Shown here in pieces: positions 33,146 through 57,871 of a stretch of DNA of 64,000 nucleotides. The translations under genes and the position numbers were made by a program. Where the stretch lies: the NCBI GenBank assembly GCA_949358305.1, contig OX442314.1, forward strand, positions 32,488,001 to 32,552,000, written 5' to 3'. A model generated the notes under the pieces. It had not been told where the DNA came from, searched no databases, and saw only the letters and a list, made by a program, of their open reading frames with translations. Numbering within the stretch: the stretch's first letter is position 1; each line of letters starts with the position of its first letter. Source of the stretch: Strigamia acuminata. Lineage: Eukaryota.

Positions 33146-34108
33146 TGCTGCGATCCGGGTTTTTATCTACTTAATTTCTAATAAATTAAGCAGAAACCGC
33201 AGGTGAATGCTTAACAAGACTTATATCGCGGCCGAAACTTGTCTAGGGTTAAGTTTATGGAAATAAAGGCACAATTTAATATGGTAATAAAAATCACACA
33301 AATATTTATTCTTTAAATTACAATATATATTAAAAACGATGGAAATATCACAGAATGCGACAAGTCGCAAGAATAAATGAGCGGGAACAATGGAAGGGCT
33401 TGCAACGACTGTTGCAAGCTACAAAGCGTCAGAAATGGCGCTTAAACAACGTGATGTTGTTGAGCGAAGGCAAATGTCTTCGTTTTCGGCAAACTCACGA
33501 ACGATGGTCGAAGACGATGGTTCTCGTGGGTTTCTTCTACGGCTCGTGCGACGGCTCGGCGGCGGTGGTTGACGGCTGTAGGCGTCTGGTCCAGGTACGA
33601 TGGCGATGGTTGCCGTTCGCGCGGCAACGATGGCGATGGTTCACTTGGATCAGGAAACTTCTACTTCTCGATAGCTGGAATTAGCGACGGCTAATTCAAG
33701 CTGAATTGCTGGCTTTGTGCGTTTGATACACAAAGATAGCAGGCGAAACTGAGTTACAACGGTCCTCTATCAATACGTATTGTCGGAGCAAATATCGCAG
33801 TGATGTTGAGGTTGTTGTTGTATTTTTCAGAGTCCTGATTTGAGCCAAGACGCGAGCCCAGCACGCTTCAATATTGCGCAGAAAACCTGCGCACTTAGCT
33901 CAAATGGGTGCAACTAGTGGTTATTACACCATATTGCACCATAACGGCTAATAACCGTTTTCACCCCGGACAACCTGGGGTGATATGTGCCTAGAGAGGA
34001 TTTCTCCCCTCGGTCACATGATCTGACTTGGCGTGTGCCACAGTCAAATTAATTAGAAGACAATTAATTTTATCTTCTAAGTTGGTGAAATATTTTGAGA
34101 TCACCACA
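33146..34108 (-). repeat. Gypsy 3' LTR
   Basis: Direct repeat of 56909-57871 with no differences found by eye. Preceded on the - strand by the PPT AAATGGGGGGATG (34109-34121). Confidence 0.95.
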
Positions 34109-34160
34109 CATCCCCCCATTTAAGACGAATCTTACATGGAGAGAAAATGAACGAACCAAT

Positions 34161-37100
34161 TTATGATTCGTCCATGTTCTGAGTTCGCTCAGGCGTCAAC
34201 GGGCGCATCATATCCGTGGTGTCGTCCCTCGGGTTGGACCGCTCGTTAACCGTACACAGGTCGCGACCTGCGTTTGGTCCGGAGACCATTCCAGGGTTGA
34301 CATGAAGCCAAACCTGGATGATTCTTGCCGAGTTCGCTCGGTTGAAAAATCCTAGCGCCGCAAACTCTATCGGATCCTCTGGCGCTAATCGTGCTCTCAG
34401 GAGTCGATCATGGAGCACCGATGGTGGGCTTAACACCCGAATGTGGTCTTCGAGCCACATAAACACCTGCCTCGACAACTTGTGGTTGTTGCTAAGCAGT
34501 GTTCGCGTATCCGGCGTCAAATAGAAGTGCGGATACAGGCGCATCAGGGTCTTGAAAGCCGACTCCTTCTTCAGCGGCTTGACCTTCGTCTCCGGCTTGG
34601 CTGGCGGCGGCGGCGGCGGTGGACGTGAGTCTTCCGTCGTGGCATCGTCAAAATGGCTCGGCGAGCCCAAGAAAACCAACGCGGGTGCGGAGGTTGACGA
34701 GGGTGTGACGCCTCGTCCCTGCGCTCGACCCACACCGGGGAGCTGACGGGTTTCGACTTCCCGTTGAACTCCGGCGGGAGTTGGAGAACTTCTCGGGTTC
34801 TCTTGCCAAAACGAGCATCCAGCGCCTTCTTGGGCCGACTGAAAAACAGCCAGTGACGCAGCTGCTGTGGCGCTTGTAACTGGAAGCGGTGGTCTTCCGG
34901 CTATTCGCGCCGTGGCCTTCGCAAAGGACCACTCGGTTCGCAACCGAACGGCGGCCTCTTCTTCGGTCTCACCGTTTGCTACGACTTGCTTTATTAGCTC
35001 GGCTAAGATCGTAGGCGGGTCGAGCCTGAGGTGGTACCACAGCTCGACTTTCTTCTCCGACAGGCCCATCGGCGCGGTCCAAAAGTACGTAATGGCCGCT
35101 AACGCCTGTCCTGGCGAAGGAAGAACACCAGGGTACAACACCCTAGTCATCCCCGGAATTAGCTGACGCTGAAAATCCATCAGGCGGGGATCATCAATGG
35201 TATTGATGTCGGAGACTTCTAGCCTTTCAGCTAGTCTCTGCCAGTCCTTCTGCGACTCGGCGATCTGGGCGCTTTGGTATGCGTCCAGCTTCTGGAGCAC
35301 TTCCTGCTGCGCTCTAATGGGTTGCTGCTCGTAGCAGGTCCATTGTGGGCCGAATAACTCACTGAAAAATGGCCGGAGTTGCAGGTTGCTAACTCCAGCC
35401 GGCAAGCGGGAAACATATCCTTGTTCGGGCAAGCGGCTAGCGTGTCTAGGTACAGGCACACTACAGTCGGGAGAAATATCACCGACGACACGTCTCATGG
35501 CGTATGGAGTAGCCGGGTTGTCCACTTTGAACGTGGAGACGGTTCGGCTACTTCGGGCGGACTGGATTGTGGAGTCCGATTCGAAACTCAGCGAAGACGA
35601 CGAGCCAAACGACTCTGGTGTCCGTCCTCGTCGCGACTGCGGGCGTGACGGCTGCACGTCAGTCGAATACGGGCGCGATCGCCTCTGTCGCTCCTCTCGA
35701 TCGCGGCTCGATTCGCGGAACATTGGTCTGACTGGAACCGGCGGAGGGAGTTGCCCCACCCTCAAATCTGAAGAGTTGCAATGGCCTGTGCGCTGTCGAA
35801 ATAACTCGGAAACATCATTTTGGCTGGGCGGATAAATCGGACACGCGTCCGCCATCTTTTATTACAAAAGTATGTGTCTTACATAAAAACCCGGTTCGAG
35901 GCTAATCGCCCTCGATCTCAAACACAATGAAATCATAGAACAAATCATTGTTTCAATACACTGACTTGTTCTTTACAGAAAGACAAAACTAATGGATAAA
36001 ACAAACAGAACAACATAAACAATAAGTGCTCATTTGAGCAGATGACAGGTTGTGTGTGTTGTCACGTAATAGGAGTCGGTTGCGGTACAAAACCAGCATT
36101 GGGATTAAAAATCAGAATCAACCGACTGCGATACGGGACATCAACATGGCAACACACTGATTGCATTTATCCACAATATGCAATCCGATAATCTACGCGG
36201 ATGCGAGGACAAACAGGAAAACGTCAACCTAACAAATCCCCCTTCGTTTAGCTATTTGTCAATTACAAAGATGTATTCGCATAGCGCGTTCAATCTGGAT
36301 TTAGCTAACCACTTCGTCAGAATATCCGCGACATTTAATTCGCCGGAAACATGCTCGATCAAAAACGTTCCTTTCTCAAACCAATCTCTAACGAAATGGA
36401 GCTTCACGTCTATATGTTTATTTGCCCTGTTCTCGATCCTATTCTTACAGTATTGGATAGCCGGCTGGCTATCCGCAAAAACACAGGGCGTATTTCGCTC
36501 GAGACGAAACATTATCTTCGCGTCGTAAAGGCGCTCGAGCCAAATAACTTCTTTCACCCCATCGACCACGGCGAGAAATTCGCTCTCCATGATCGACAGG
36601 GAGGTCATCGATTGTTTGTGGCAATTCCACGAGATGGGAATGCCACCCATATAGACAATATGTCCCCCAAAGCTTCGTCGTCTGTCTTGATCCAGGGCAA
36701 ACGACGCGTCGGTGTAAACTGTCAAATTCTCGTTTTTACAGTTCGATAAGTTAATCGAATAATTCGACGTGGTGGCCAAATATCGCAGGACCTGCAGTAA
36801 CATATTGACATGGCGCGTCGAATGCGTCTCGTTATACTGGGAAAGCACTATTACTGAAAACAGTATGTCGGGTCTGGTTCGGCTGGCGATGAACAACAGA
36901 CTTCCGACCAGAGATCTGTACGGGAATGAGGTGTCGGCTTTTTCCCCGGTTCTTACACCTTGAATCATGGTTCCCGGGGTTACTGGAACCTTTACTCGAT
37001 GGCACGAGTCAATCCCGTACGCTTTACAAAGCTTTTCAATATATTTCCGTTGGTGGATTTTAATCATGCCCCCGGACCTATCAAACTCAATTCCTAAAAG

Positions 37101-40100
37101 TAAAGTTACGGGCCCCAGACTCACTACTTCAAACGATTCCCGTAACCACTTCAAGACGCATTGTTCCACATAGTCATCCTTGGAAAACAACACGATATCG
37201 TCCACGTAAAAGATGACTATTGCATCGTTGTCTAGGGCATAGACACAGTTTAAACCCAACAACGGTTGAAAGCCCAATTCAAGTAGTCGTATGTGGAGGA
37301 CCTGGTACCACATACGACCGGACTGGTGTAATCCATAAAGTGCTTTTAAAAGCATCCAGCATTTATGCTTATTATGGGCGGTACGATATCCCTTAGGGAT
37401 CTCCATGTACTGTACCGTATCGAGGTCCCCGTAAAGGTACGCGGCCTTGATATCCAGGTGTAAATCCCGCCATCCCTTGAGTATCACCAAAGTGCAAAAG
37501 AACACTATCACTAGCACAAAGTTGACGACGGGGGAGAACACCTCCGTAAAGTCAACTCCGGGCTTTTGCTTAAAGCCCTGTGCGACGAGTCGGGCTCGGT
37601 AGCGTTGGATAACACCCGTGTGGTCGCGCTTCATTTTGTATATCCATTTCGATCCCAAGAGAGTCGTACCCTCGTCTAAAGTTGTTTTGTCAACTTCCTT
37701 GTAAACCGTTCTTTCATCGAACACATCAATCTCCTCTCTCATGGCTTTTATCCAATCAGGACGCTTGATGTGGTACATGGCTTCTTCGTAGGTTTCTGGC
37801 TCGACGGCACAGAAACCTGCAAACCCTAACGGTTCACCGTCCCCCTCTAATGTCTTAAAGTCAAATAAGGTCGCATCATATGCGTACCCTTCTTCATCGC
37901 ACCACCGTGCGATATCAACTCGACTTCTTATCTTATCCTTTAAGGGCGTGATGTAAACAACATCTATTTGTCCCGCCGTCGCTCCGTCTTTACGGACGGA
38001 TGCGCGTCGTTCCCATTCCGCCATGTTTAACGGCAGTAGTTCCGGATGTAACATCACGTTCCCTTGCTTTTTCCTTGATCGTGATCCACGCCGTGTTTGA
38101 ATCCCAGGAGGAATTTCAGGTTCCCCATCATTGTCAGGATAGATGTTGAAGTAATTCCCATCATCCCCCTTCGCCCCACCAATTTCTTCAACAGGCTCAT
38201 CCCCTGTATCCCCGTCCCCAAGAATGGGGTTCCCCTCAACGGGCATGAGTGGGGGTTGCTGAGCTGCCTGTTTAGCGACTGGCCTCAATTCAGGTCTCAG
38301 AGTAGGCTTTGGGGTCGTGGGCAATGCGGGTTTCACTTTCTGCTGCGGAGCAGGTTGTGGAACCTCCTGTATCGCAGGAGGGGGTTCCGGGGTTTCCGCC
38401 GGAATTGGGTCACCGACAACACTGTCGTCGTCAGAAAATGACCCATTGAACGAGTCCGAACTCGAAGTATCAAAGTCATTCTCCAATTCAGGCGACGTAA
38501 CCGTCCCTAATTCAAACCAGAAATTGTTTTCAAAAATTTTGACGTGTTTAGACAAAAACACCTGATTTTTATTCGGATCCCAAATTCTATAGCCGCGTGT
38601 AGAAGCGGCGTATCCAATTAATGCCCCAGCCCATGCCCTGTCTTGTAATTTCCCACCCCGAGTCTGAGATGGGATATGGACATAAGTCAATGAGCCAATG
38701 CACTTGACATGGCGAAGGGACAATTTCTTATTGTAAAACACAGAATAAGGTGTTTTTCCCCCAATTCCCGTATGTGGAAAACGGTTTTTCAGATATACAA
38801 CTGAAACGGCAAGCTCTGCCCATAGAGTGGCGGGAAATTTATTCTCAAAAAGAAGTGCCCGAGTACCATTAAGAATGGTACGGTTCGCCCGTTCGGCGAC
38901 CGAATTCATTTCTGGGCTGTATGCATTAGTCCTCATACACTTAAGCCCAATTGTCGCCACATAATCGTCCCATTGTCTAGATATGAACTCCCCTCCATTA
39001 TCAGTTTTTATAGCCTTTACCTTCTTAGAGGTCGTTCGCTCAACTTCAAGTAGCCACCGCTTGAAATGTCCTAAAACGTCACTTTTCCGTTTCATGATAA
39101 TTATCCACATAAAGCGGGAAAAATCATCAATGAGAATGAGATAATAGTACGCCCCACCCAATGTTTGAACTGGCGCGGGGCCCCACACGTCTAAGTGCAC
39201 TATTTCCAAAATACTTTTTGTCGTAATTCCAATTATTGGGGGAAAACTAGCACGTGTACTTTTCGCCCTGGCGCAAAAGTCACACGTCGACAACTCCTTA
39301 TTCGAGAGTTTCAGCCCAAAAACATCAGTTGACTTTTCTAACCCCGCAATTCCCTTTGCATTTAAATGCCCTAGGCGGGAGTGCCAAATGTCCATCGTTT
39401 GAGCCTTATCTTTCTTGTCAAAAGTTTTAACCCCATCAGTAGAATTGTTCCCATTCTCTGCTTTGTCTGCATTGTTCTGCACAATTGAACTTGCCTCCTT
39501 AGAGGCATTGGCAATCTTTGCCTTAATTTTATTCGAAACATTCGCTTGCGCATTAGTCGTAACATTCGCAGGCGCGTTGTTCGCAACACTCGCTTGCCCC
39601 TTTATCGCTGGTGCAGGTTTCCCTGACTCACTCGAATTTTGGGTTAATGCGTCCTTAAAACTAGGGTATGTTAGTATCGAATTTACAACTTCATCGCCTT
39701 TTATAAGCGGACTAGAAGACACTGTCGCAGCCTGTTGCGCAGGTAATGCGGCAGTGTTCACAGGAGAAATACGACAATTGACCTTATACATCCGATCACT
39801 CGTGCGTTCCGCAGTGATGGAAGGGTCATCAATTTTGTCGTTATAAATAACCATTTTGCCATTTTTAATCATGGTCGTTGCCCCAGCTTCATCCGTGCGA
39901 CCCAACGAAATCAAATTCTTCCTAAAGTTGGGTGCATAAAATACATTATGCAATGTAATTGCACGGGTGCGGGTTCCATAAATCGATGTCAACGTCACAT
40001 TTCCTATTCCTTCGATTCTCGACTTTCCTTCTCCCTGTTGCACGTGGCCAGTTAATGGCTTGAAGTCGGAGAACCAGTCTTTGTTGAAGGAGAAATGGTC

Positions 40101-43100
40101 CGTCGCCCCTGTGTCGACGTACCATTGCGAATCATAATTCGCGTGAGACACGTGGGAAGCCGGCACAGGGGGTTGTTGTTGAAGCCAAATTGCCGCGGAG
40201 TAATAAGAGACTGGAGAGTCGCTGAATATGTCAGCCTGTGTGACAGCGGCCTTTTGCTGGCCCCTTCCACGTCCCTTGCCCCGTGGATTGCCTCTAAATT
40301 GTCCAGTTTGGTTCCCTTTCGGTTGGAATTGCTGTTTCGGCGGAGTAGGGCATTCACGGGCGAAGTGGCCCGTCCCACCGCAAGTAAAACAGATGCGTGT
40401 GCCGCCGGGTGCATTTCCACCACGTCCGCGTTGTCTTCCGCCTTGGTTAAAGAAGGCACCAGTGTTCTCCAATGGCGCCTTGGAAGGCACGCCAAACTCG
40501 TCGGTTGTTACATGTAGGCGGTTGTATTCGCCTACCAGGCGTTCCTTGACCGCTGCTGCCGTGAACTCTGTGTCACCCCAGTGATAAACCGTCTGCTTGA
40601 CCGGTTCGTATTGGGGTGGCAGTAGGTCAAGATATTGAAAGGCGTGAAACTCATCAGAAATTTGAATCTTGACATCTGCAAGCTGTACTACTTTCCGATC
40701 AACACGTGCGGTGAAAACAAACATCTCTTCGTTTTCATGCAACCGCATGTCTAAAAATTCCCTGCGAAGACGGGCTTTACGTGCCCGGGTCGTGGGCTGG
40801 TAGGCAGCTTTCAGTGCCTCCCACACTTCTTTAGCAGTGGCCTGGGCAACCGCCACGACCTGTTGGGCCTCGCCGCAAGCCAAACAAATGGTGGAGCGGG
40901 CCCTTTCTTCGCCTTTCTCAAAATCCCTTGTCTCTCGAAACGGTGATCCGGCCGGCGGCTCTTTTGTCTTGCCGGTCACGTGGCCCCAAACACCGTACGA
41001 TTGGAGGAGGAGCTGTACCTGTACGCTCCAGGTCGGATAGTTGGTTCCGTCCAACTTTTTCACGTCCTTGTAATCATCATGGCGGTCGTAGGACGCCATT
41101 TCGGGAAATTTGCGACGAAATTTAGTGAAGAACCGAAGCACAAGTCACACAAACCACGTAAATTCGTCGCACGGATGCAGAATTCCCCCAAAAGTGAAGG
41201 CGAATAATGCACACAACCCGGGGAATCTCAATAAGTGAGATTGAAAAACCTTGACTAGCAATCCCCCAACTCTTCCGTTCGCGCCTCCTGGGGCCCGCGG
41301 GATGGTTGGGTGGCCGTGGATAAGCCTAGCCAAGAATACAGTGCTACGTGCCCGACTGGACGTAGGGTAGCACCGATTCTAACAGGGGACCACAACAAAA
41401 CCTTAAAACTAACAGAGTTTCACGACAGTAAATTATATTACACTTTTTGATGTGAAGCTGGTAAAGTTGCGGCGAATTGCGGGTGCAAAGCGTCGCAATA
41501 ACGTCCTTCGAGGACGAAACGTTGCTCCCACGTCGTCGTACGCACGGAAAATGGGCTGTCGTGCCGTCCGCGTGCACACTTCCGTGCGATCGCGGGAAAA
41601 TCAACGTCGCGCTCGTCCGCGCCTTCGTGAGACGGACTCCGGGGTTCGAAACACGGAAAATAACGCCTGCACACACGCTTAACGTGTGCAGGACTTCTCG
41701 GTGACCGCAGACTTCTCTGCGTGTTGCAAAAATCGTCGGTCGCGACGATTTATCCAAAAAGAAAATGGCCGCCGTCGCGAAAATCTTCGATGACGACGTC
41801 CAAACGTGCTTATTTCGCACGGAAATCGACAATAAATGTTCCTACCGTCGAAAAAGATCCTGTTGTGGGTGTAATTGACCACACAACACTGCTGAAAAAT
41901 CCCACGAAGCGCTGGCACTTGCAGCCACTCGTAGAATACACAAAACACAAATTTCGACCGTCGTTTATTTCCACGACGTCGAAACGACGAAAAATACCGA
42001 TTTTCGTGACGAAAACGTATCCAAATGTTCCGCTGATGGCGAGGAATCCTCCGCACACGTTGTGGCGACGATTCCACGTAGAAATCCGCACCGAAAACTC
42101 GTTTTTACGACGAGCTGGGCGGGCGCACACTCGGCGACTTCTCGTAGTCGCAAAATGGCCGTTTCTTCTCCAAAAACGTCGTTGCCAGATCGTTTTTACC
42201 TTCTGCTACCACTTTGAAGAGTTGCAATGGCCTGTGCGCTGTCGAAATAACTCGGAAACATCATTTTGGCTGGGCGGATAAATCGGACACGCGTCCGCCA
42301 TCTTTTATTACAAAAGTATGTGTCTTACATAAAAACCCGGTTCGAGGCTAATCGCCCTCGATCTCAAACACAATGAAATCATAGAACAAATCATTGTTTC
42401 AATACACTGACTTGTTCTTTACAGAAAGACAAAACTAATGGATAAAACAAACAGAACAACATAAACAATAAGTGCTCATTTGAGCAGATGACAGGTTGTG
42501 TGTGTTGTCACGTAATAGGAGTCGGTTGCGGTACAAAACCAGCATTGGGATTAAAAATCAGAATCAACCGACTGCGATACGGGACATCAACATGGCAACA
42601 CACTGATTGCATTTATCCACAATATGCAATCCGATAATCTACGCGGATGCGAGGACAAACAGGAAAACGTCAACCTAACAAAATCCTCGTCTTGCGGCGG
42701 AGGATTGATGGCCGCTGGGGCCGGAATTTCATCTTCTCGATAAAAAGGGAGAGCGCAACGCGCTTGCTCCTCTGCCTCGTGAGCCAGTTGTCGATTTTCG
42801 TCGACGCGAAGCTGCACTGCGGCAGCTCGGAGTGCTTTCGACGGGAAGAATCCCGGAAAATCGTTGAAACACCCGGCGAGCGCCAACTGGTGGAGCTCGG
42901 TTTGTGTGACGGGAAATTGCGGGTTCCCGTCACGAACGGACTTGCGGTACCGTTGCACGACTTCGCGTTGAGTCGTTTTTGACGATGATAAGTGAAGTTG
43001 TCAACGCCGGGAAATAAACTGGAGACGAAACGAAAGTCATTTTGTGCCTGAAAACCGCACAAACGCGTCGGCCATCTTTATTCAGGCAAGAACAGGTGAG

Positions 43101-46100
43101 CAAGTGAATATGTACAGGTGTCGAGGCTATTTGCCCTCGATCTAAAAGTAGAACAAATCATCCTGATGGAAAGGTTGATTTGTTCTTTACATAACCAAAG
43201 TAAAGATAACTCAAAGCCAGCATTAACACTGGATAATGCACTGGGGGAAATAATAGATAAACTAAATCATAGCAGACGACAACTCGAAATCCATTGATAA
43301 ACATGAGCCAACTGTAGTATTTAACACGCATTGCGACAGTCAGATGCAGTTGGCTCTCGATTCCAGTACAGTAAACAATGCGACCCGAATTTCGCCTTTA
43401 ACGCACTTAGCCAGAAAAGGTGCGCCGTTAATACGTGAAATGAAAAACTGCTTTGACCCAACAGAACCCCCTCTAAACAGTTATCCATTTCAGTCAAAAA
43501 TGTGATCGCATAATGCGTCAAGACGTGGGCGGGAAACCCACTTGGTCATAATGTCTGCGCTGTTCAGCGCGGACTTTATTCCGATCGAAGATGTAAATCC
43601 CCTTAACCATTTCCTTGCCCCAATCCTCATTGCTGAGACCAGTCATGGTATCTCCTAAGGTACCTTGTCTTAAGTAACAAAAACTCGCAAATGGTGGAGG
43701 AACTTGTGCCCGCGGTTTCGCTTTAAAATCGAATAACCCTGCATCATATTCGTAGTCCTCCTCCTCACACCACCTCACTACATCGATACGACTTCTAAAT
43801 CGAGTGCCCGTTGGTGCAATGTAGTGAATGAAAACATGTCCGGCTTGTGCTCCGGATTTCCTAATGTATTCTACTCGTTTCCATTTCGTGATATCAATTT
43901 GTTGTAATTCAACTCCCCCAACTGCCCCAGTATGCCTGCCCCTTACATTAGGAGACTGTGCCACTGCCTCTTCATATCTGGCATCATCGTCACTGCCTTC
44001 ACTTGGAGTAGCATCTCCTGCAGTGTGAGCGACATCCTCTGGTAAATTAGGGTCTAATTGGGGTAATGGAGCAGGCTGAGACGTAGATGCCTCATCCTCT
44101 GGCTCCGTCGTCGTTGCAGGAATAGTCTGCTGCGTAGGAGGTTCAACAGTTTGTTGTGTTGTCGACACAGGGGGACTTTGGGGAATTTCCTCCTCTTCTG
44201 CTTCGGATTCGCTAATTAGATGAATATAATCATCAGATCCAAACCCCCTCTTAGCCTCAACACTTCCCAATCCTTTTGAAACTGTTTGTGTTCCCTCGTA
44301 CCAATATTGATTCTCATCAATTTTTACATGTTTTGATGCAAAGACTTTGTTCTTGTGTGGGTCCCAAATCCTGTATCCAGCTGTGGTTATTGCATAACCA
44401 ATTAGGGCCCCCGACCAAGCTCTACTGTCTAGTTTGCTTTTCCGAGTTTGCGCTGGGATGTGCACATACACTTTCGACCCAATACAGCGCAAATGTCGCA
44501 CCGACATACGACGTCCGAAAAATACATTATAGGGAGTCCGTCCCTGTAAACTCGAGTGAGGGTATCTATTCTTCAAATACACAATGGTATTTGCCAACTC
44601 AGCCCATAAGAAGTGTGGAAACCCATTTTCCAATTCCATAGCTCGCACCCCCTCTATGATGGTGCGATTCGATCGCTCCGCGACCGAATTCATCTCGGGG
44701 CTGTAGGCGTTGGTCCGTTCACACTTGATTCCGCAAGATTTAGTATAATTATCCCATTCTTTGGACACAAACTCACCCCCCCTATCTGTGCGGATCGTTT
44801 TAACCTTTCTAGAAGTCGCACGCTCGACTTCTGCTTGCCATGCTTTAAAATGGGCAAAAGTTTCACTTTTATGCTTTAAAAAACTGATCCACATATATCT
44901 AGAGTGGTCGTCCACAATAATGAGATAATACTCAGCCCCCCCTAAAGATTTGCATGATGCGGCCCCCCAAAGATCCATATGAATTAAATCTAAGATTCCC
45001 TTGGATTTGATCTCGGCTATTGGAGAAAAGGTTGCTCTAACCCGCTTCGCCCTATTGCACGCATCACAAGGAGAAGCCAACTCATTGCTTAATTTAACGC
45101 CAAAAATTTCTGTGGATTTTTGCATCATCACAATGCCCTTTGAGTTTAGGTGGCCCATTCTGCCATGCCAAAAATCCATCGGTATTGCTTTATCATTGTC
45201 TAATCTCTTCCCATTAGTATTATTATTAGCCGTTAAAGCCGTTTTAATCGGTCCCATCACTGTAGGTTTAGTCTGTTTCACTCCCGTCTGATTAACCCCC
45301 TGTACCACATTACTAAACGTGCGCGCATTGTTCGCATTGCTCGCATTATTCGCTGCGCCATTTGTTGCAACAATCGTTTTCCCATTCGATTGCACATTAG
45401 AAGTGGTTAGTTCACACTTAACTCTAGGCATGGTTAATACAGTTTGTTTTACACAATTAGTTATGCCAACTGCCTCCTTCTGCGCAGGGATGGCAGTTGC
45501 ATTCACAGAGGTGACAGACACATGTCCGTTAACCTTATACAAGCGATTGCTGAGTCGTACAGCTGTTAACGATGGGTCTTCAATCTTTGCCCGAAATAGA
45601 GTCATTTTGCCGTCTGCAACGTAAGTGCGTAAGCCAGCCTCATCAGTGCGCCCGAGAGAGATAAGATTCTTCCGAAAATTCGGAGCATAATAGACGTTGT
45701 TCAAAGTAACAACTCTACTCCTGTTGCCATATGTGGAAATTAACTCCACAGATCCAATCCCTTCTATTTTAGAGGTCCCTTCCCCTAGCTGCACTGTGTA
45801 ATTGAGAGGCTTAAAATTTGCAAACCACTCTTTGCAAAAGGCAAAATGGTCAGTAGCACCGGTATCCACGTACCAAGCGGTGTCTACTGGTCCATTCGAC
45901 AAAAATGACGATACAGGAGGCGGCGGCTCCTCCACTTCCATGTAGAGTGAGTCCGGGTCGTCAATCCAATTGTCGACTAAGTTGGCTTTACGCCCACCAC
46001 GTCCTCCTTTTCCACGATTTTTCCCACGTGGCTGTCCTCTAAATTGAGACGTTGGTCCAACGTTGGACGACTGAGGATTCTGTCCAGTTTTGCGTTGCGA

Positions 46101-49100
46101 GGGACATTCTCTCGAGAAGTGACCCGAACCGCCGCAATTATAACACACACCTTGTTGTGCTGTTGTAGAACCCGGTTTGTTAAATTTCCAGGGTTGTTTT
46201 GCCGTAAAAGCACTGGTATCCGGTTGTCCGCTGGCCCCAAACGTTGAATCATACGCGTGCATGCGGTTATACTCGGCGAGTAAACGTTCACGCACTTTGA
46301 CCACGGTAAAATCCGTATCATCCCAATGATACAGTCCCTGTTTTAAGTTCTCATATTGGGGATCCAAAAAATCGAGATATTGAAATGCTATCTCCTCATC
46401 AGTGAGTGTAATCTGCACTTCTTTCAACTCGAGCGCCTTTCGATCGACGCGAGATGTAAATACGACCATCTCTTCGTTAGCATTCAGTTTGAGCTGGAGA
46501 AACTCCCGACGCAGTCTGGCTTTCCTAGCCCGGGTCGTGGGTCGATAAGCCTCTTTTAGCGCTTCCCACACCTCGCTCGCGGTGTCTTTGGCGACAGCGA
46601 CTGACTGCTGGGCTTCATTGCAGCTCAGGCAAAGCGTAGAATGTGCTTTTGCCTCTCTCGTCTCGTATTCACGTTTTTCACGCGCCGTTGCGCTTGAAGG
46701 CAGGCACGGCTCAGTGCCCATCACGTGAGCCCAAACTCCTTGCTGCTTTAGAATGAGGGCAATTTGTACACTCCACGTTTCATAGTTCAATCCATTCAGT
46801 TTCTTAATCGATTGTCCAAACGATTTATAAACATCGCCATCCGAATCGTCTGCCATTTCGGATTTTTGGAGAAAATGCAGCACAAAACACAAAATTCACA
46901 CAATTCGTAGCACTTTGCACACAAACAAATACACTTTCCCACCAAAATGAAGGCGAATGCAATACACTACTTCCCGGGGTACAGCTCAATAAGTGAGCAC
47001 AACTAACTTGACCAGTCGCTACAAGGGCTTCCGTCCGACACACCTGGGGTCGCGGGATCGCCCCCTTGCTTCGAGCAAGCCTGGCCAAGAATAGGATGAC
47101 ACTAGGCGAATGCCTAAAGGGTGCCAAACAAACAAAAGGTCCCAAAAGCAAAAACTTAAATTTATACAAAGTAATTCCGACCCCGAAAATGCAATAAATA
47201 ATACGTTGTGAAGGTGGCACGTTGTTTTCCGTTGTTGGCGGGACAAATTCGTCGCCAAAATTCCAACGGCGATCCACCGACGACGTACGGTGCTCCAACG
47301 TTACAAACGGGCGTGCGCGTATGCACTAACCCGCCCAGAATACGAATTTAGCGTGTATTCTGGTTCCACCAACTTCCTGGTCTTCACTATTGCACTCGTA
47401 CGTGCAAATAGTGGCTCTTGATCCCGACAATAAACGTCGTTTGCGCGTGCTCGTCTCGTACGATGCAGCGCACACGTAACTCGCTTCGAAAATGTCCGTC
47501 CCGTTCGTTTCGCCAAAATTCCGCTTCAAAATAAATGCCTGCTTGTTCCAGACGATTCCCACGACGATAATTAGTCGCCACGTTGTGTTTTCCTTCGCTG
47601 GAAAACTCCACGACGTGAAGAAACGGCCCAAACTCTGCTTAAACTCGCATCGCACTGGGGGCCGCCATCTTGGAAATGGTCGGCAGCGAAGCTCGACGAA
47701 TGGCCATTTTCGCTTGAAATGAGCCAAAAATACACGATTAATATTCGAAATAAATTCCTTACTGTTCGTAAATGTCCTTTCCAACGCCCAAACACTCGTT
47801 GGAACACAGAATCGGCGATGTGAACGTAAATACGACGTTCGCTCGTCGCGTCAAAGCGCGGATACGGTTCCGCCCAAATTGACGTGTCCGGCGTCGATTT
47901 CGTTATGAAATCCGCTGGAAAACTTCACGATTCGGCCATCAACCATCCTCTGCTACCACTGACGATGATAAGTGAAGTTGTCAACGCCGGGAAATAAACT
48001 GGAGACGAAACGAAAGTCATTTTGTGCCTGAAAACCGCACAAACGCGTCGGCCATCTTTATTCAGGCAAGAACAGGTGAGCAAGTGAATATGTACAGGTG
48101 TCGAGGCTATTTGCCCTCGATCTAAAAGTAGAACAAATCATCCTGATGGAAAGGTTGATTTGTTCTTTACATAACCAAAGTAAAGATAACTCAAAGCCAG
48201 CATTAACACTGGATAATGCACTGGGGGAAATAATAGATAAACTAAATCATAGCAGACGACAACTCGAAATCCATTGATAAACATGAGCCAACTGTAGTAT
48301 TTAACACGCATTGCGACAGTCAGATGCAGTTGGCTCTCGATTCCAGTACAGTAAACAATGCGACCCGAATTTCGCCTTTAACGCACTTAGCCAGAAAAGG
48401 TGCGCCGTTAATACGTGAAATGAAAAACTGCTTTGACCCAACAGTTTTGAGGTTCTTCCTCAATTGGGTGAGAGCACCGTAATTAATTCCGGTACTCTTT
48501 AGCGCTCTTCTGCGCTCGTGACGCTCTCGGGGCGTCACTGGCCACTGGTTGTGCAACAACTCTGCTGCAAGTGGTCCTGGGGGGCTCTCGTCGAGCGTCC
48601 ACTCGATTTCGTCAACTCCGTTGACGTGAAGGCGCTCGATGAACCGGCCTCTTGCTCCGAATCCTTGCAGCGCTGATCTGCTGAAGTCGTGGCGCAACTT
48701 CCACCACGTGTTGTTTGCCGTCTTCAGTCTTCTGATTTTTTCGGGCAACGCCGCTCGAAAAATCAGCGGGTGCTGAGTCGGCACATGATCGGGAAGCGCG
48801 AATGGCGTTTCTCGATCTCTCTCGATCTATATTCGAAGAAAAATAAATAAATTAGTTTATTTAAAATAAACAAATAATTTCTTATTTGAAATATTTTTTA
48901 AGCTTAGCGCTTGTGGCTGTGAGTCACTAAGGGATGTTGGTTGTCATGGCAACTCCCTTCGCACATGCTTGAAGCACGTGACTTTTATAGCCGCCATTTT
49001 TATTTTTTAGCGGCTTGTGTTTGAAGTCAGGAAAAGTGAATTTTCTCAATTTTTCTGACTGAAACACCAAGTGAAAATTATTTTAATAATTTACCCTCTC

Positions 49101-49184
49101 TTGTAACGATAATTGGGCATCGTTACCGGCTCCTTCCATCGGCGCTTCATCGTCCGCATGGAGGTTGACTTCGTCGTCTGCCAT
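34161..49184 (-). CDS. Spliced extra gene (ORF3) of the gypsy element, unknown function, interrupted by two copia insertions; reconstructed length 789 aa
   Basis: Segments 49184-49095 (MADDEV...SLQER), GT-AG intron 49094-48827, 48826-48444, 42974-42681 and 35763-34161 join into one stop-free frame once each copia and one TSD copy are removed (junctions ..LKT|TQRE.. and ..QDED|LRVG..). A 66-nt GT-AG intron (49288-49223) lies in the 5' UTR. Confidence 0.8.
36252..41099 (-). CDS. Copia polyprotein Gag-PR-IN-MBD-RT-RNase H
   Basis: CFTCGGTGHFAREC knuckle; WYVDTGATDH protease; WHSRLGH..CDFC; HLDVWGP, TDNGGEF and AERANRT (integrase); MBD; RARLVAQGF and FYVDD (RT); YTDAS and ADILTK (RNase H). First ATG at 41099. 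Confidence 0.95.
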   Translation of the reverse strand: MASYDRHDDYKDVKKLDGTNYPTWSVQVQLLLQSYGVWGHVTGKTKEPPAGSPFRETRDFEKGEERARSTICLACGEAQQVVAVAQATAKEVWEALKAAYQPTTRARKARLRREFLDMRLHENEEMFVFTARVDRKVVQLADVKIQISDEFHAFQYLDLLPPQYEPVKQTVYHWGDTEFTAAAVKERLVGEYNRLHVTTDEFGVPSKAPLENTGAFFNQGGRQRGRGGNAPGGTRICFTCGGTGHFARECPTPPKQQFQPKGNQTGQFRGNPRGKGRGRGQQKAAVTQADIFSDSPVSYYSAAIWLQQQPPVPASHVSHANYDSQWYVDTGATDHFSFNKDWFSDFKPLTGHVQQGEGKSRIEGIGNVTLTSIYGTRTRAITLHNVFYAPNFRKNLISLGRTDEAGATTMIKNGKMVIYNDKIDDPSITAERTSDRMYKVNCRISPVNTAALPAQQAATVSSSPLIKGDEVVNSILTYPSFKDALTQNSSESGKPAPAIKGQASVANNAPANVTTNAQANVSNKIKAKIANASKEASSIVQNNADKAENGNNSTDGVKTFDKKDKAQTMDIWHSRLGHLNAKGIAGLEKSTDVFGLKLSNKELSTCDFCARAKSTRASFPPIIGITTKSILEIVHLDVWGPAPVQTLGGAYYYLILIDDFSRFMWIIIMKRKSDVLGHFKRWLLEVERTTSKKVKAIKTDNGGEFISRQWDDYVATIGLKCMRTNAYSPEMNSVAERANRTILNGTRALLFENKFPATLWAELAVSVVYLKNRFPHTGIGGKTPYSVFYNKKLSLRHVKCIGSLTYVHIPSQTRGGKLQDRAWAGALIGYAASTRGYRIWDPNKNQVFLSKHVKIFENNFWFELGTVTSPELENDFDTSSSDSFNGSFSDDDSVVGDPIPAETPEPPPAIQEVPQPAPQQKVKPALPTTPKPTLRPELRPVAKQAAQQPPLMPVEGNPILGDGDTGDEPVEEIGGAKGDDGNYFNIYPDNDGEPEIPPGIQTRRGSRSRKKQGNVMLHPELLPLNMAEWERRASVRKDGATAGQIDVVYITPLKDKIRSRVDIARWCDEEGYAYDATLFDFKTLEGDGEPLGFAGFCAVEPETYEEAMYHIKRPDWIKAMREEIDVFDERTVYKEVDKTTLDEGTTLLGSKWIYKMKRDHTGVIQRYRARLVAQGFKQKPGVDFTEVFSPVVNFVLVIVFFCTLVILKGWRDLHLDIKAAYLYGDLDTVQYMEIPKGYRTAHNKHKCWMLLKALYGLHQSGRMWYQVLHIRLLELGFQPLLGLNCVYALDNDAIVIFYVDDIVLFSKDDYVEQCVLKWLRESFEVVSLGPVTLLLGIEFDRSGGMIKIHQRKYIEKLCKAYGIDSCHRVKVPVTPGTMIQGVRTGEKADTSFPYRSLVGSLLFIASRTRPDILFSVIVLSQYNETHSTRHVNMLLQVLRYLATTSNYSINLSNCKNENLTVYTDASFALDQDRRRSFGGHIVYMGGIPISWNCHKQSMTSLSIMESEFLAVVDGVKEVIWLERLYDAKIMFRLERNTPCVFADSQPAIQYCKNRIENRANKHIDVKLHFVRDWFEKGTFLIEHVSGELNVADILTKWLAKSRLNALCEYIFVIDK
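37854..38015 (-). other. Methyl-CpG-binding domain in Copia A
   Basis: WERRASVRKDGATAGQIDVVYITPLKDKIRSRVDIARWC...FDFK matches the MBD pattern W.R...RKSG..AG..DV.Y..P.G...RS..E...FDF. Confidence 0.9.
43518..46856 (-). CDS. Copia Gag-PR-IN-MBD polyprotein without RT/RNase H
   Basis: CYNCGGSGHFSREC, WYVDTGATDH, WHGRMGH..CDAC, HMDLWG, TDRGGEF, AERSNRT, then MBD. The ORF ends ~70 aa later with no YxDD motif. An RNase H tail (ADIMTKW..RLDALCDHIF, 43490-43558) survives in another frame. Confidence 0.9.
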   Translation of the reverse strand: MADDSDGDVYKSFGQSIKKLNGLNYETWSVQIALILKQQGVWAHVMGTEPCLPSSATAREKREYETREAKAHSTLCLSCNEAQQSVAVAKDTASEVWEALKEAYRPTTRARKARLRREFLQLKLNANEEMVVFTSRVDRKALELKEVQITLTDEEIAFQYLDFLDPQYENLKQGLYHWDDTDFTVVKVRERLLAEYNRMHAYDSTFGASGQPDTSAFTAKQPWKFNKPGSTTAQQGVCYNCGGSGHFSRECPSQRKTGQNPQSSNVGPTSQFRGQPRGKNRGKGGRGGRKANLVDNWIDDPDSLYMEVEEPPPPVSSFLSNGPVDTAWYVDTGATDHFAFCKEWFANFKPLNYTVQLGEGTSKIEGIGSVELISTYGNRSRVVTLNNVYYAPNFRKNLISLGRTDEAGLRTYVADGKMTLFRAKIEDPSLTAVRLSNRLYKVNGHVSVTSVNATAIPAQKEAVGITNCVKQTVLTMPRVKCELTTSNVQSNGKTIVATNGAANNASNANNARTFSNVVQGVNQTGVKQTKPTVMGPIKTALTANNNTNGKRLDNDKAIPMDFWHGRMGHLNSKGIVMMQKSTEIFGVKLSNELASPCDACNRAKRVRATFSPIAEIKSKGILDLIHMDLWGAASCKSLGGAEYYLIIVDDHSRYMWISFLKHKSETFAHFKAWQAEVERATSRKVKTIRTDRGGEFVSKEWDNYTKSCGIKCERTNAYSPEMNSVAERSNRTIIEGVRAMELENGFPHFLWAELANTIVYLKNRYPHSSLQGRTPYNVFFGRRMSVRHLRCIGSKVYVHIPAQTRKSKLDSRAWSGALIGYAITTAGYRIWDPHKNKVFASKHVKIDENQYWYEGTQTVSKGLGSVEAKRGFGSDDYIHLISESEAEEEEIPQSPPVSTTQQTVEPPTQQTIPATTTEPEDEASTSQPAPLPQLDPNLPEDVAHTAGDATPSEGSDDDARYEEAVAQSPNVRGRHTGAVGGVELQQIDITKWKRVEYIRKSGAQAGHVFIHYIAPTGTRFRSRIDVVRWCEEEDYEYDAGLFDFKAKPRAQVPPPFASFCYLRQGTLGDTMTGLSNEDWGKEMVKGIYIFDRNKVRAEQRRHYDQVGFPPTS
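43722..43883 (-). other. Methyl-CpG-binding domain in Copia B
   Basis: WKRVEYIRKSGAQAGHVFIHYIAPTGTRFRSRIDVVRWC...FDFK. Confidence 0.9.
47941..47958 (-). promoter_or_regulatory. Primer-binding site, tRNA-iMet (Copia B)
   Basis: The + strand reads AACCATCCTCTGCTACCA, the 3' end of animal initiator tRNA-Met, 1 nt from the LTR. Confidence 0.9.
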
Positions 49185-49406
49185 TCGTTTTCTTTTTCGC
49201 GTCGGAAAAGAAATTCTTTCGGCTAGAAAGAATTAATAAACTATATTAAATATATTTATCGAATTTTTCTTTCAGAAAAATAACTTACAGTTTGCTGAAT
49301 CAATAAAAACTGTCGTGTTGTATCGGAGTCGATGCATCCACTTCAAAACTTATCGGAAAAGTGGCTAAGTTCGTTGATTGGAGCAACGAACTTGTTTCGG
49401 TGACAC

Positions 49407-49475
49407 CGAATGACGTCACAAGTTATAACGCATTGTGAACGTTGTCATTCGAGTATTTACTACGAATGACGTCAC
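49407..49475. promoter_or_regulatory. Putative internal promoter of ORF3
   Basis: CGAATGACGTCAC occurs twice (49407-49419, 49463-49475) and contains the CRE palindrome TGACGTCA. An inverted variant lies at 49441-49451 and TTATAA at 49423-49428. All lie between the pol stop and the ORF3 5'-UTR intron. Confidence 0.4.
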
Positions 49476-49526
49476 GAGATTGCTCTCTCGGATCTTTCGG
49501 GTAAACCCAAAAGGTGAAAGTCAACG

Positions 49527-52500
49527 CTATGTCTTGACTCGCGGAACGCGAGATCTCAAGTTGTACTTTGACTTTCGCGAAGTACAATCCAACTTGTTTA
49601 GATTGTCATCAGCATCGTCTCCAATGTCAGATGAGTTATTTTCTTCATTGTTTGAAATTTTCTCTTTTTCTAAAAACATTTCCTTTTCTAGATTTTCATC
49701 AAGAGAAACATTTTCAAGTCGCTTGTTTATTTCATCGACTTCGTTATTTTTGAGTTTCGATTTTTCACTCGATTCCGTGTTTTCGACAGGAATTTTGGAT
49801 AATTCAACATCATCCAAGGTATTAACAATATTTTTTGTTTTTTGACCCACTTCCTCCCCTTCCAGCCAAATTTCTTGGTTGAAAACGGGAAAGTACGGCA
49901 TTAATTCAGTGCCGTGAACAGCTGGATAAATTTTATTATCACTCAGCCGTCGAAGTTGAAAGGCGCCTCCTTGTAATCTTTTGACAATTACATAAGGCCC
50001 ATTCCTTTTCGGTGAAATGCCTGCTGCTATTCCTTTAGCGGCATTTGAGAGAATATGAGACTCTCGCCAGACTAAATCATTCTGTCTGAAGTTATCGAAT
50101 TTTTTGTCTGATTTTTCAGCTTCGACACGGCGTCTCAAATCTAAGACGTGAGACATCATATGCTGATACGTCTCTGCAATTATTGCTTCTAATTTCTGAA
50201 CATATAAATGCGGATTTTTTGGGTCAATGACTAAAATTCCTTCCGGAATTCTTGGATCCCAAGGAATTCTTAATTCTCGGAAAAAATTCAAGAAAGCTAG
50301 AGAATAATCTCTGCCTCTTGTTACAGTTGTTCTCAAACTGAATGCAAATTCGCGTAGATACTCATCCCATTGGTCGTGAATATCTAAATAAATCGAAACT
50401 AAATATTTAATATCTCGATTGGTTCTCTCCACAGGATTGCTTTGTGGATGATAAATCGATGTCGGTGTTCGCGACATGTCGAATTTTTTGCAAAATTCTT
50501 TATAGACCTGTGATCGAAATTGTGGTCCATTATCACTTATGATTTGTCTCGGAAATCCGAAAGTTATTGATAAGTGATAAATTGTGTTGGCAACTTTCAT
50601 TGCCGTTGGATTACACATTGGGAATAATTCTGGCCAATGCGTAGCGACATCTACGATGACGCAAATGTGGGTATTGTTTCTTCTGGTTCTTGGTTTGGGA
50701 CCAGACAAATCCACACTGAGGCAGTCAAATGGTCCAAATGGTCCAATTTGAGCGCCTTCAATTTCGGTCTTTGATCTCGGCTTGCATGCCTGACATCCTT
50801 GACAATGTTGAATAAAACGTGTAATATCACGTTTCATACCTTTCCAGGTATAAACTCTTCGAGTTCTGTACATTGTCCTCGCAATGCCTGGGTGGCCGGA
50901 CAGTGGATGTCCGTGCATCAACCATATGATTTTATAAATCAATTTCTTTGGCACAACAACTTTAAGCGCCCTACCATCCTCTCCTAATTCATCGGTAGAG
51001 GTAGGATGATAATGGAGTAACATATCTTCTTCAATGAGATAAGTACTCGCGTGTCTTTCAAAATTTCTTCTTTGAAGACGAGTTACTATGTAACTTGGAT
51101 ATTGCTTGTTTAACAAGTAATTGCGAATATGTTGGCAAAATTTGTCTGCTTTTTGCGCCGCAATAATGTCATCTCTCGTTGGAGGATCACATTCTAATTG
51201 CTTCGCAATTTTAGCCGCAAATGCTTTTATTAAAACATTTGTTGTTGGCAGCTCGAATTTTTTAGCCATCATGGCTCTTAATTCGACGTCAGGGGTTCCT
51301 GACGGATCATGCATTTTAATACAAAAATTAATTAATGCTTGATCGTCTTCATTAACTATTATTGACTTGGGTAATTCATTCAATTTTCCCATTTGCCAAC
51401 TTCGGCAAGGAGATGGGCAATATGATAATAAATCATCATTATCGCCATCGTCTTCTGGTTCGTCAGGTGCGCTGACAGGTGCACGTGACAATGCGTCTGC
51501 TATTACATTCAGCGGACTTTTGACGTACTGTATTTCGAACGAATACGCCATCAGCTCCATTTGCCAACGAGCTAATCTGCCCGACGGGTCAGATAACGAC
51601 ATCAACCATTTAAGTGCTTGGTGATCTGTTTGTACAGTGAATGTAGTGTACTCTAAGTATGGGCGAAATTTGCGCAAACCCCATACTACTGCGAGACATT
51701 CCAATTCTGTCACAGTATAATTTTTTTCTGCGGGCTGCAAGCTTCTGCTTGCATACACGCATGGCATTTCGACTTCTTGGCCATCCACATTTTTCTTTTG
51801 TGTAAGGGCTGCACCCAACCCTTGTTTACTGGCGTCAGTATGAACAATAAATGGCATGTACAAGTCAGGCATCTTCATTGTTTCAGCATTCGTAAGCAAG
51901 TCTTTTATTGCGTCGAATGCTGCCTGATGATGCAGTTCCCAATCGAACTCCGCATCTTTCTTCAAGAGTGGCCTTAGTGGTTCTGCCACTGTGGCCAAAT
52001 TCTTGATTAGGCGGTGAAAGAAATTCACCATGCCTAGAAATCTTTGTAATTCCTTAAGATTGGTAGGAGCAGGAAATTGCGTAATTGCAGCGACTTTTTT
52101 AGGGTCTACTGCAAGTCCTTCTACTCCTACTTTGTAGCCTAGAAAAATTAATTCCTTTCTACAGAGATGCGTCTTGCCAGGGTGCGCATGTAAATTAGCT
52201 TCTGCCAATTTTTTAAACACTATATCTAAATGTTTAAGGTGTTCTTCGAACGATTTGGATACAACAATTATGTCATCCAAATATGCCCATGCAAATTTTC
52301 TGTAAACGTCACCCAAAACCTTTTCCATCAATTCTTGGAAAGTAGTTGGTGCGTTTACTAATCCGAAAGGCATGACTAAAAACATTAGTCTTCCCATTGG
52401 GCTCCAGAAGGCAGTCTTTTCTCTGTCTTCAGGTCGCAATTCTATCTGCCAATATCCCTTGGTCAGATCTATAGTACTGACCCACTCGAATTCTCCGATT

Positions 52501-56700: not shown

Positions 56701-56797
56701 GTGACTCAGTCACTTCTTGATCCACGACTGGTAGATCGATCGCCACTCGTCTCTTCGCCGGCCTTCCTCTCGGTCTCTTCTCTGAAGGAGTCGCCAT
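53774..56797 (-). CDS. gag: Gypsy gag (1007 aa)
   Basis: Coiled-coil-like N-terminus, capsid-like region (WFRR..KWDDFVKQF..KQRKGESL) and a CNLCKKLGHWQKDC knuckle. Starts just after the PBS. Confidence 0.9.
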   Translation of the reverse strand: MATPSEKRPRGRPAKRRVAIDLPVVDQEVTESQELFEAMDQTANCNSAQLIVNEFTQALERQQPSPPSGQLDLNNPTGSGRSKSQNDDLNLRIQSSSAEHSLNSSPVQGAAQQDSENSNMEVSHSPVRVTMMDALREQARLEGVKVTSEMTVEQIHKAMVRKQSQKDVEIVRTSLQAEFERMHAEMHQQNAELKQQRANDHVKLLQLEQEKASWLITDEEQQQRLEQLNQAQKDLEIANENLRLANANLREANTNLMTAELTAPVRAREEIPSTSRNYENYAAEQAARAKRLAQRENEVFLARQQSVIDAGQAAKSQSTAEQLLRADLAAQARENEILRADLLTVQENFAVVVQKVQDVCGEDNFAKPAPVLQKGASKSPELIDLTSAKPKVSRQSSWTDSDDSRSSRGSRNSHHSRKKRKRQPDPTEYHSPKVTQDSDRFFSNSDRLIGLLERKNKEREKPHDRGRSHDNPREGSPKRDCHNDIRDGPRYRGNPPGGDPPGGDSSDGHGGGHTRDHNSNGNRNGRGPPNGDRRPPDGDDPPDPDPPPNPNHESASDTDSSRPSVRGRSRHRTRSRTQRPDFYTKDEIDQLLRQNAQQQRKSRRDKIILQKISEFTSDKWTHQTTDEKFIRWDRVIPHAYNGNWQAGSNLLLEIFELGKVHSFGCEGALAHLVPRILVGGVKEWFRRKDFTKWDDFVKQFMFKFGESSEDIKTLWRCLKQRKGESLHSYMLRAENLLGRMPHAVTDATADDQFRAGLTEYSKNILMMSDAPDPGKFSELNEFMEVNQLRIDEKYKAYLTEAERSAYLKREKRLAEQNNETFNGLKLLQPPSYEDFLDEVEGKSSKKESSKKDVKNPHSVPKLHANITGAETPSSEAEEAEEEEEAGDETLALLAKAAAFLAKNNPVAGKWKPKMKSKNVSFDASKVNTERNSKSPAVSPERRSDARSRSASPAATKKKSPATDPCNLCKKLGHWQKDCPSSKKDKPVSTAEFEKAVKIITDMFRKNL

Positions 56798-56888: not shown

Positions 56889-56906
56889 ATCCCGGACGGG
56901 CCCCCA
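56889..56906 (-). promoter_or_regulatory. Primer-binding site, tRNA-Pro (gypsy)
   Basis: TGGGGGCCCGTCCGGGAT, one mismatch from the canonical tRNA-Pro PBS TGGGGGCTCGTCCGGGAT, 2 nt from the LTR. Confidence 0.9.
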
Positions 56907-56908
56907 CG

Positions 56909-57871
56909 TGCTGCGATCCGGGTTTTTATCTACTTAATTTCTAATAAATTAAGCAGAAACCGCAGGTGAATGCTTAACAAGACTTATATCGCGGCCGAAA
57001 CTTGTCTAGGGTTAAGTTTATGGAAATAAAGGCACAATTTAATATGGTAATAAAAATCACACAAATATTTATTCTTTAAATTACAATATATATTAAAAAC
57101 GATGGAAATATCACAGAATGCGACAAGTCGCAAGAATAAATGAGCGGGAACAATGGAAGGGCTTGCAACGACTGTTGCAAGCTACAAAGCGTCAGAAATG
57201 GCGCTTAAACAACGTGATGTTGTTGAGCGAAGGCAAATGTCTTCGTTTTCGGCAAACTCACGAACGATGGTCGAAGACGATGGTTCTCGTGGGTTTCTTC
57301 TACGGCTCGTGCGACGGCTCGGCGGCGGTGGTTGACGGCTGTAGGCGTCTGGTCCAGGTACGATGGCGATGGTTGCCGTTCGCGCGGCAACGATGGCGAT
57401 GGTTCACTTGGATCAGGAAACTTCTACTTCTCGATAGCTGGAATTAGCGACGGCTAATTCAAGCTGAATTGCTGGCTTTGTGCGTTTGATACACAAAGAT
57501 AGCAGGCGAAACTGAGTTACAACGGTCCTCTATCAATACGTATTGTCGGAGCAAATATCGCAGTGATGTTGAGGTTGTTGTTGTATTTTTCAGAGTCCTG
57601 ATTTGAGCCAAGACGCGAGCCCAGCACGCTTCAATATTGCGCAGAAAACCTGCGCACTTAGCTCAAATGGGTGCAACTAGTGGTTATTACACCATATTGC
57701 ACCATAACGGCTAATAACCGTTTTCACCCCGGACAACCTGGGGTGATATGTGCCTAGAGAGGATTTCTCCCCTCGGTCACATGATCTGACTTGGCGTGTG
57801 CCACAGTCAAATTAATTAGAAGACAATTAATTTTATCTTCTAAGTTGGTGAAATATTTTGAGATCACCACA
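56909..57871 (-). repeat. Gypsy 5' LTR
   Basis: 963-bp direct repeat of 33146-34108, adjacent to the PBS. Confidence 0.95.

Follow-up and report, generated by a model that had tools for sequence, protein, structure and literature searches.

The 64,000-nt stretch of Strigamia acuminata DNA analyzed here (the window; contig OX442314.1, positions 32,488,001 to 32,552,000, numbered below from its first letter) carries on its minus strand a Ty3/Gypsy retrotransposon with a third gene in addition to gag and pol. The third frame occupies the slot between pol and the 3' long terminal repeat (LTR), where env would sit, and is present as three minus-strand pieces: A (48444..48826, 383 nt, 127 codons), B (42681..42974, 294 nt) and C (34161..35763, 1603 nt, 533 codons plus the stop). 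Two copia insertions, also on the minus strand, separate them: copia 2 (42980..48443, target site duplication (TSD) AAAAC) between A and B, and copia 1 (35769..42680, TSD GATTT) between B and C. A preliminary description of the locus had recognized one frame cut by two copias, and the three phase-concordant pieces and both duplications bear this out. The fragments it listed (48320-48784, 42587-42958 and 34161-35855) do belong to the frame but run into the copia LTRs, and their true limits are those of A, B and C. By simple arithmetic the reading phase agrees at both copia breaks, and 30 codons of an upstream exon plus 759 codons of the pieces give a total of 789.

The third frame and its probable splicing

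Piece C is open for 533 codons, compared with a maximum of 291 in 1000 shuffles. For the upstream part of the gene, sister copies were viewed as contig fragments from two public runs of one study, X1 and X2. These runs are probably DNA, judging from the even depth of diverged contigs (about 250 and 110) and from records of up to 29-37 kb. No run catalogued as RNA contained the stretch, which has no bearing on expression. Variants were taken from the 40 best supported of 122 in 48430-49560 and from 40 of 484 in gag and pol. Among those listed, 11/13 in piece A are synonymous where a fraction of 0.28 is expected (P = 3e-5; ratio of nonsynonymous to synonymous polymorphism, pN/pS, about 0.07), compared with 11/12 in gag and 15/23 in pol. 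Piece A is under purifying selection as strong as that in gag. The comparison spans the exon and A; for B and C it is the open frame that argues for selection. Indels follow a similar division: among the 12 shown of 20, six fall in the two introns described below, five in the leader and one in A. Loose contig ends at 48447 (five contigs in X1, two in X2) continue into B-like sequence, so sister copies without copia 2 exist. In X2, contig depths near 10,000 stand beside others near 110, which suggests that the Gypsy family is high-copy, depth itself being no copy number. Taken together, the third gene is almost certainly real and selected. Its composition sets it apart from pol: GC content is 56-58% and there are 9-12 CpG per 100 nt, whereas pol has 40% and 3.8.

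Upstream of piece A lie an exon (49095..49222) and two GT-AG introns, all on the minus strand and both introns being present in this integrated copy. The first intron is 66 nt long and AT-rich (49223..49288, GTAAGT..TTTCTAG); the second is a hairpin-rich, 268-nt coding intron of phase 0 with 31% GC (48827..49094). As had been proposed, the ATG exon at 49184-49095 ends in the donor AGG|GTAAAT and joins in phase 0 to the acceptor at 48827. Phase-0 donors with an open upstream ATG include 49094, reached from ATG 49184 or 49139. GC content drops from 54% to 31% at this donor boundary; overall the exons have 54-58% and the introns 31% and <25%. The acceptor's own TAG forms a stop directly before piece A, neither A nor B contains a methionine, and the first methionine of the A-C frame is residue 14 of C. 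Because A and B are Met-free and preceded by a stop, the codons under selection can be reached only via a splice. On the strength of these features and of an indel tolerance confined to the intron, splicing of the 268-nt intron is very probable. A maintained, splice-dependent third gene without env character, as the preliminary description envisaged, is thus well supported by the pN/pS of A, the Met-free A and B and the absence of env features reported below.

The 66-nt intron is skipped exactly in contigs of both runs. One contig per run (depth 501 and 121.5) joins 49222 directly to 49289 with CT..AC ends. One X1 record (record 8, depth 468, near the joint's 501) stops exactly at 49289 and one X2 record (record 13) exactly at 49222, as expected of assembly-graph branch points. 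If the runs are DNA, the joint marks a rare genomic copy whose intron disappeared by way of a spliced RNA; if they are RNA, it is a spliced transcript. Where translation begins affects how this intron is classed. An upstream ATG at 49337 opens 49 nt (49289..49337, minus strand) that are in frame with ATG 49184 across the intron, and its frame ends at a stop if the intron stays in place. A start at 49337 may render the 66-nt intron coding and would add 29 residues ending in RKRKR (49199-49185, just before ATG 49184), giving 818 aa instead of 789. The intron itself was correctly called earlier, and its assignment to the 5' untranslated region and the length of about 789 aa hold if ATG 49184 is the start.

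The region between pol and the exon may also contain a promoter. Two TGACGTCA sites resembling the cyclic AMP response element (CRE), each followed by TT(C), lie at 49411..49474 on the minus strand, and the loose contig end of a diverged sister at 49397 likewise holds TGACGTCA. We regard these CRE-like sites after pol as a candidate internal promoter. A subgenomic RNA could start there or, alternatively, arise via donors in the 5' LTR or gag; a donor-like TTC|GTGAGT is found within the 5' LTR near 57258 (minus strand). Separately, AAAATGGCG, TATAAA and CACGTG follow one another within the 268-nt intron (49000-48975), as promoter-like motifs inside an intron.

The leader is variable between sisters. 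A 486-nt X2 contig (depth 5964) aligns on either side of 49068-49356 and not within it, with equal spacing. The corresponding 289-nt 'skip' at 49067-49357 is no deletion, since X2 record 16 has a diverged stretch of the same length instead. Leader, small intron and ATG exon (49068-49356) are strongly diverged in a major subfamily.

Pol and the leader/intron region fold far better than shuffled sequence. Mean z values are -3.4 for pol (14 windows) and -3.9 for leader and intron (4 windows), beside -1.0 to -1.6 for the copias and -2.05 for host DNA. The minus-strand RNA of pol and leader (53774-48827) is dense in stable local hairpins, with z down to -6.4, and such hairpins are more abundant there than in the copias or in a second Gypsy fragment of the window. 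Pairing at the four splice sites (0.49-0.72) is near the regional mean of 0.64, and the pyrimidine tract of the 66-nt intron is more paired (0.86). A contribution of RNA structure in cis to intron retention is possible.

The element, its insertions and its surroundings

The Gypsy element measures about 12.3 kb without the copias, and its features lie on the minus strand. The 5' LTR (56909..57871, TG..CA ends) and the 3' LTR (33146..34108, by self-comparison) are 100% identical; self-comparison of the window returns a 967-nt match at 100% identity, and the copy is very young. A primer binding site at 56889..56906, which we take to be tRNA-Pro-like, and a polypurine tract at 34109..34120 flank the internal region. 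The large repeat of the host has an empty site in another of its units, which reveals a 4-bp target duplication, GATG. Profile matches place pol (protease (PR), reverse transcriptase (RT), RNase H (RH), integrase (IN)) at 49527..53795, with the domain order PR 146-241, RT 403-556, RH 619-751 and IN 948-1117. The LTR pair with TG..CA ends, the TSD, the primer binding site, the polypurine tract and the PR-RT-RH-IN order together identify a Ty3/Gypsy element. The closest pol relatives are 32-46% identical and bear no lineage labels. gag (53774..56797, 1007 aa) has a Retrotrans_gag domain and one C-terminal CCHC knuckle; it is unusually long, with a coiled-coil-like, Gly/Pro/Arg-rich N-terminal half ahead of the capsid domain. 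It overlaps pol at an A6C run, the likely site of a -1 frameshift as read from the sequence. gag and pol remain open in the present copy, and the third gene is interrupted twice.

Both copias carry a methyl-CpG-binding domain (MBD), placed after integrase by profile search. The CopiaMBD family of a centipede and a spider has the same arrangement (PMC6673714), a likeness that points to an arthropod host. Copia 1 has a 1630-aa open reading frame (ORF) and LTRs 99.8% identical. Copia 2, whose LTRs are 100% identical, has gag, protease, integrase and MBD (46895-43518), but no RT match was found ahead of its 3' LTR, and stop codons precede the ORF; the element appears to be a recently mobile, non-autonomous CopiaMBD derivative. 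The two copias lie <300 nt apart, within the stretch of the Gypsy element where CpG is densest (9-12 per 100 nt, against 3.8 in pol). CpG-dense landing sites and the MBD fit MBD-guided targeting of a methylated copy.

The flanking host DNA (1-33146 and 57872-64000) consists of degenerate 7-10 kb units repeated in tandem at about 90% identity and dotted with inverted-repeat elements, and the Gypsy element sits inside one unit. On the plus strand, a second Gypsy pol fragment (29128-31263, RH-IN, 711 aa) is CpG-depleted (observed/expected 0.6) and, by its sequence, appears older than the main element. A search of Rfam across 33000-58000 gave 0 matches.

The predicted protein

No hydrophobic segment was found in the exon or pieces A, B and C, the highest 19-residue Kyte-Doolittle mean being 1.01, which agrees with the earlier claim that a transmembrane segment is missing. 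All pieces together contain six cysteines and one N-glycosylation site and form no Cys finger. The N-terminal exon is acidic (9/30 residues D/E). Modeling suggests ordered helical blocks, with two ordered regions in C, between disordered Pro/Ser/Arg linkers, which include a run of seven prolines. The preceding RKRKR run retains its basic character in a variant sister, where K becomes R and the change in R is silent. Traits of env are absent: there is no membrane anchor or transmembrane helix and no match to a Cys-bridged ectodomain, and the N-terminus is acidic. The small fusogens of the sORF2/FAST-like type, with 60-210 aa, one transmembrane helix and a myristoylation motif (10.1101/2025.03.14.642691), differ from a product of at least 789 aa that has no hydrophobic helix. 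Judging from sequence, the protein is neither a membrane protein nor an envelope.

Searches of pieces A, B and C against Pfam, NCBIfam and PDB sequences gave no match of note, piece B being compared with these three only; none of them links the protein to a described ORF3 or env family. In none of the pieces did Pfam or NCBIfam profiles find catalytic motifs of the rotifer DEDDy/GDSL type. Piece C has no homolog among 1.84 billion protein representatives and no usable match in the ESM Atlas. A word search of 5.8 billion clusters yielded no homolog for C (7,995 candidates) or A (452 longer candidates), and viral contigs held no locus matching piece C or pol. TrwC relaxase matches to A in the ESM Atlas (0.87-0.90) were discarded as chance, given low recognition and 95-115 shared features; the one metagenome match was likewise discarded, being the antisense frame of a bacterial ribokinase-like ORF found via a Ser/Arg-rich stretch. 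Since the best pol relatives are 32-46% identical, the lineage is poorly sampled, and the orphan status of the protein may reflect that.

AlphaFold of piece C alone, from a single sequence, gave a predicted local distance difference test score (pLDDT) of 40.6 and was unusable. A single-sequence model of the C-terminal region (pLDDT 65) is alpha/beta, predicted as helix, strand, three helices and two strands. No fold match emerged for it (Foldseek E values of at least 3; among 48,161 chains the best Z is 3.0), and the lack of a match in PDB, VIA-wide and BFVD does not establish a new fold. A BIR or BIR-like reading based on the two LA.GF-like motifs gained no support: Pfam has no such match to E 10 and PDB no sequence match, the cysteines are too few for zinc binding, and the model is without such a fold. 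The likeness of LALAGCFN and FAALGFFN noted earlier holds by eye, but BLAST does not pair them, the best B-C matches (E 0.49-0.50) lying elsewhere. A protein without a detectable relative makes its domains targets for structure determination.

Possible functions and known systems

A sense intron in a retrotransposon must survive every RNA round. New copies come from intron-keeping RNA and the protein from intron-free RNA. The Gypsy element Cer1 faces the same conflict, and we therefore favor, at a probability of roughly 0.38, a nuclear helper of the Rev/CERV type that controls unspliced RNA. The third gene would be read from a spliced subgenomic RNA, its protein would be imported into the nucleus through RKRKR, and there it would protect full-length RNA from splicing and promote its export for packaging. 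In Cer1, CERV, an orphan protein of 517 aa whose three structured domains are joined by flexible linkers, is made from a spliced mRNA (PMC10309623), a five-exon sense mRNA, and export of Cer1 genomic RNA requires it (PMC10309623, PMC3315495). The idea that sense introns in a retrotransposon lack precedent is contradicted by this five-exon mRNA. Expanded to its full form, the proposal is a switch like that of complex retroviruses in an arthropod-type Gypsy lineage: a multi-intron env-slot gene with an internal CRE promoter, whose nuclear product of about 800 aa and new fold blocks splicing and exports genomic RNA, such that sense introns survive and intron-less copies are rare. We consider it somewhat unlikely as a whole.

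Several observations weigh against the helper role and the gene model beneath it. Neither in sequence nor in fold did profile, Foldseek and homolog searches connect the protein with CERV, Rev or an RNA-binding family. The basic run is no commoner than chance, with one motif like a nuclear localization signal (NLS) vs a shuffle mean of 0.56, and four motifs like a nuclear export signal vs 5.5. Simple retroelements can retain introns via weak or structured splice sites, no protein being needed. Of the two spliced joints predicted at the outset, 49289/49222 is seen in contigs of both runs and 49095/48826 is not: none of the three listed contig joints crosses the 268-nt intron. Even the 66-nt joint is one contig per run from one study, with a short side of 29 letters at 80% likeness whose intervening letters are not known, and such joints can stem from repeats. 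In the 30-codon exon, the two variants on the list both change the amino acid; piece A shows a 1-nt gap at 48677 in one X2 contig; and the selection figures for the exon and A derive from the 40 best-supported variants of 122.

Next in standing is a nuclear transcription or chromatin factor, either a Tas-like transactivator of the LTR and an internal promoter or an anti-silencing protein; we regard this as doubtful. In its favor are the pair of CRE-like sites behind pol, one of which recurs in a diverged sister, and the acidic exon that follows an NLS-like run. The predicted C-terminal model has a winged-helix-like order of elements, but neither a winged helix nor any other fold matches it (Foldseek E at least 3; best Z 3.0). 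Parallels exist in foamy viruses, where an internal promoter and splicing give rise to Tas/Bet (PMC13220597), and in Tor, whose env is driven by an internal promoter (PMC4402516). For anti-silencing, the presence of MBDs in the copias suggests that the host methylates CpG (PMC6673714), but the co-repressor and Argonaute-hook motifs PxVxL, PxDLS and GW/WG all number 0. Either activity alone would leave the survival of introns through reverse transcription unexplained. Were the protein an anti-silencing factor, it would be among the few from animal LTR elements.

A role in the cytoplasm or particle, such as counter-defense against piRNA or deaminases, particle transport or help in integration, possibly as a Gag fusion, is less likely again. 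A donor-like AAG|GTGAAT in gag at 54022 is in phase 0 with acceptor 48827, and CERV shares gag exons (PMC10309623), but no gag-to-A joint appears among the 15 of 32 joints shown and the third gene has an ATG exon and donor of its own. The Pro-rich linkers with their 7-Pro run would suit such a role and rotifer ORF3s in the env slot include enzymes (PMC5408684), but the third-gene protein has no enzyme family match.

The contrast in GC between exons and introns, and GC and CpG values far from those of gag-pol, could also mark a captured host or viral gene that kept its original introns, as a passenger or as something useful to the host rather than to replication. This we hold to be quite improbable: no donor was found among 1.84 billion representatives (C) or 5.8 billion clusters (A, C), and purifying selection in A matches that of gag, which retrotransposon passengers do not keep. 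That the splice sites arose by chance and that the frame is a decayed env or unrelated ORF read unspliced is scarcely credible: the coding intron lacks RNA support, the donor AGG|GTAAAT has no G at +5 and the 66-nt joint has the caveats given above, but the selected codons in A precede the frame's first Met and directly follow a stop, and env features are absent.

Much of what is seen here is already in print as separate themes, namely spliced non-env Gypsy genes (CERV), non-env ORF3s and antisense accessory genes. The new variation is introns inside a sense-strand env-slot gene. In the literature covered, to which the repeat databases Repbase and GyDB, supplements and most subscription papers do not belong, no report was found of a sense env-slot gene that combines an ATG exon of its own with small introns inside it; repeat databases may hold this Gypsy family without an annotated third gene. 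Repeat annotation based on ORFs cannot see env-slot genes that are hidden by introns of their own, so the number of Gypsy accessory genes is probably underestimated. The family also offers a high-copy natural test of genomic-RNA splicing control, with intron-keeping forms beside, by contigs, rare intron-less ones.

Among third-slot genes, errantivirus env of the F/gB type is likewise placed between pol and the 3' LTR in sense, depends on splicing and is of similar size (PMC13524379). The third gene differs in having no signal peptide, transmembrane segment or Cys-rich ectodomain, and in having small introns of its own where errantivirus env mRNA removes one large gag-pol intron (PMC13524379). 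Bdelloid rotifer ORF3s (DEDDy, GDSL, CC, TM) are, like the third gene, family-specific non-env genes in the env slot, but they are recognizable enzymes or membrane proteins whereas the third gene is an orphan, and the word 'intron' has 0 occurrences in the paper describing them (PMC5408684). Tor Penv of Oikopleura (PMC4402516) and foamy virus Tas/Bet (PMC13220597) are third-slot genes driven by a promoter that lies after or within pol/env, and here such an internal promoter is a candidate; Tas/Bet are intracellular and splice-regulated (PMC13220597), as the third-gene product would be. Unlike the third gene, the Tor product is an unspliced membrane Env, and foamy viruses are Retroviridae with an env.

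Accessory genes beyond gag-pol are also known outside this slot. Plant Gypsy elements have antisense ORFs (Grande gene23, Retand), some with nuclear products and some intron-bearing (PMC7264820). Antisense accessory genes keep introns without conflict, and the third gene differs because it lies on the sense strand. The sORF1/sORF2 genes of 412/MDG1 encode 70-110 aa upstream of gag on unspliced RNA, and sORF2 has a membrane helix where the third gene has none (10.1101/2025.03.14.642691).

The closest parallel to the helper role remains Cer1 CERV (PMC10309623, PMC3315495). Both are sense-strand, non-env orphans of a Gypsy element, with several exons and several structured domains on flexible linkers (exons and domains in our case predicted) and a basic NLS-like run, and in both the genomic RNA must bypass consensus splice sites. 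In CERV the exons overlap with gag and use the gag start; all exons and the two introns of the third gene lie wholly between pol and the 3' LTR. The third-gene protein differs from CERV in having 789-818 aa, six cysteines and no Cys finger, with no detected similarity; CERV has H, M (Cys loop) and G (GTPase-mimic) domains, and the weak models of the third-gene protein gave no fold match. If the third gene does act in a Rev/CERV-like manner, it would represent an independent invention of such a function.

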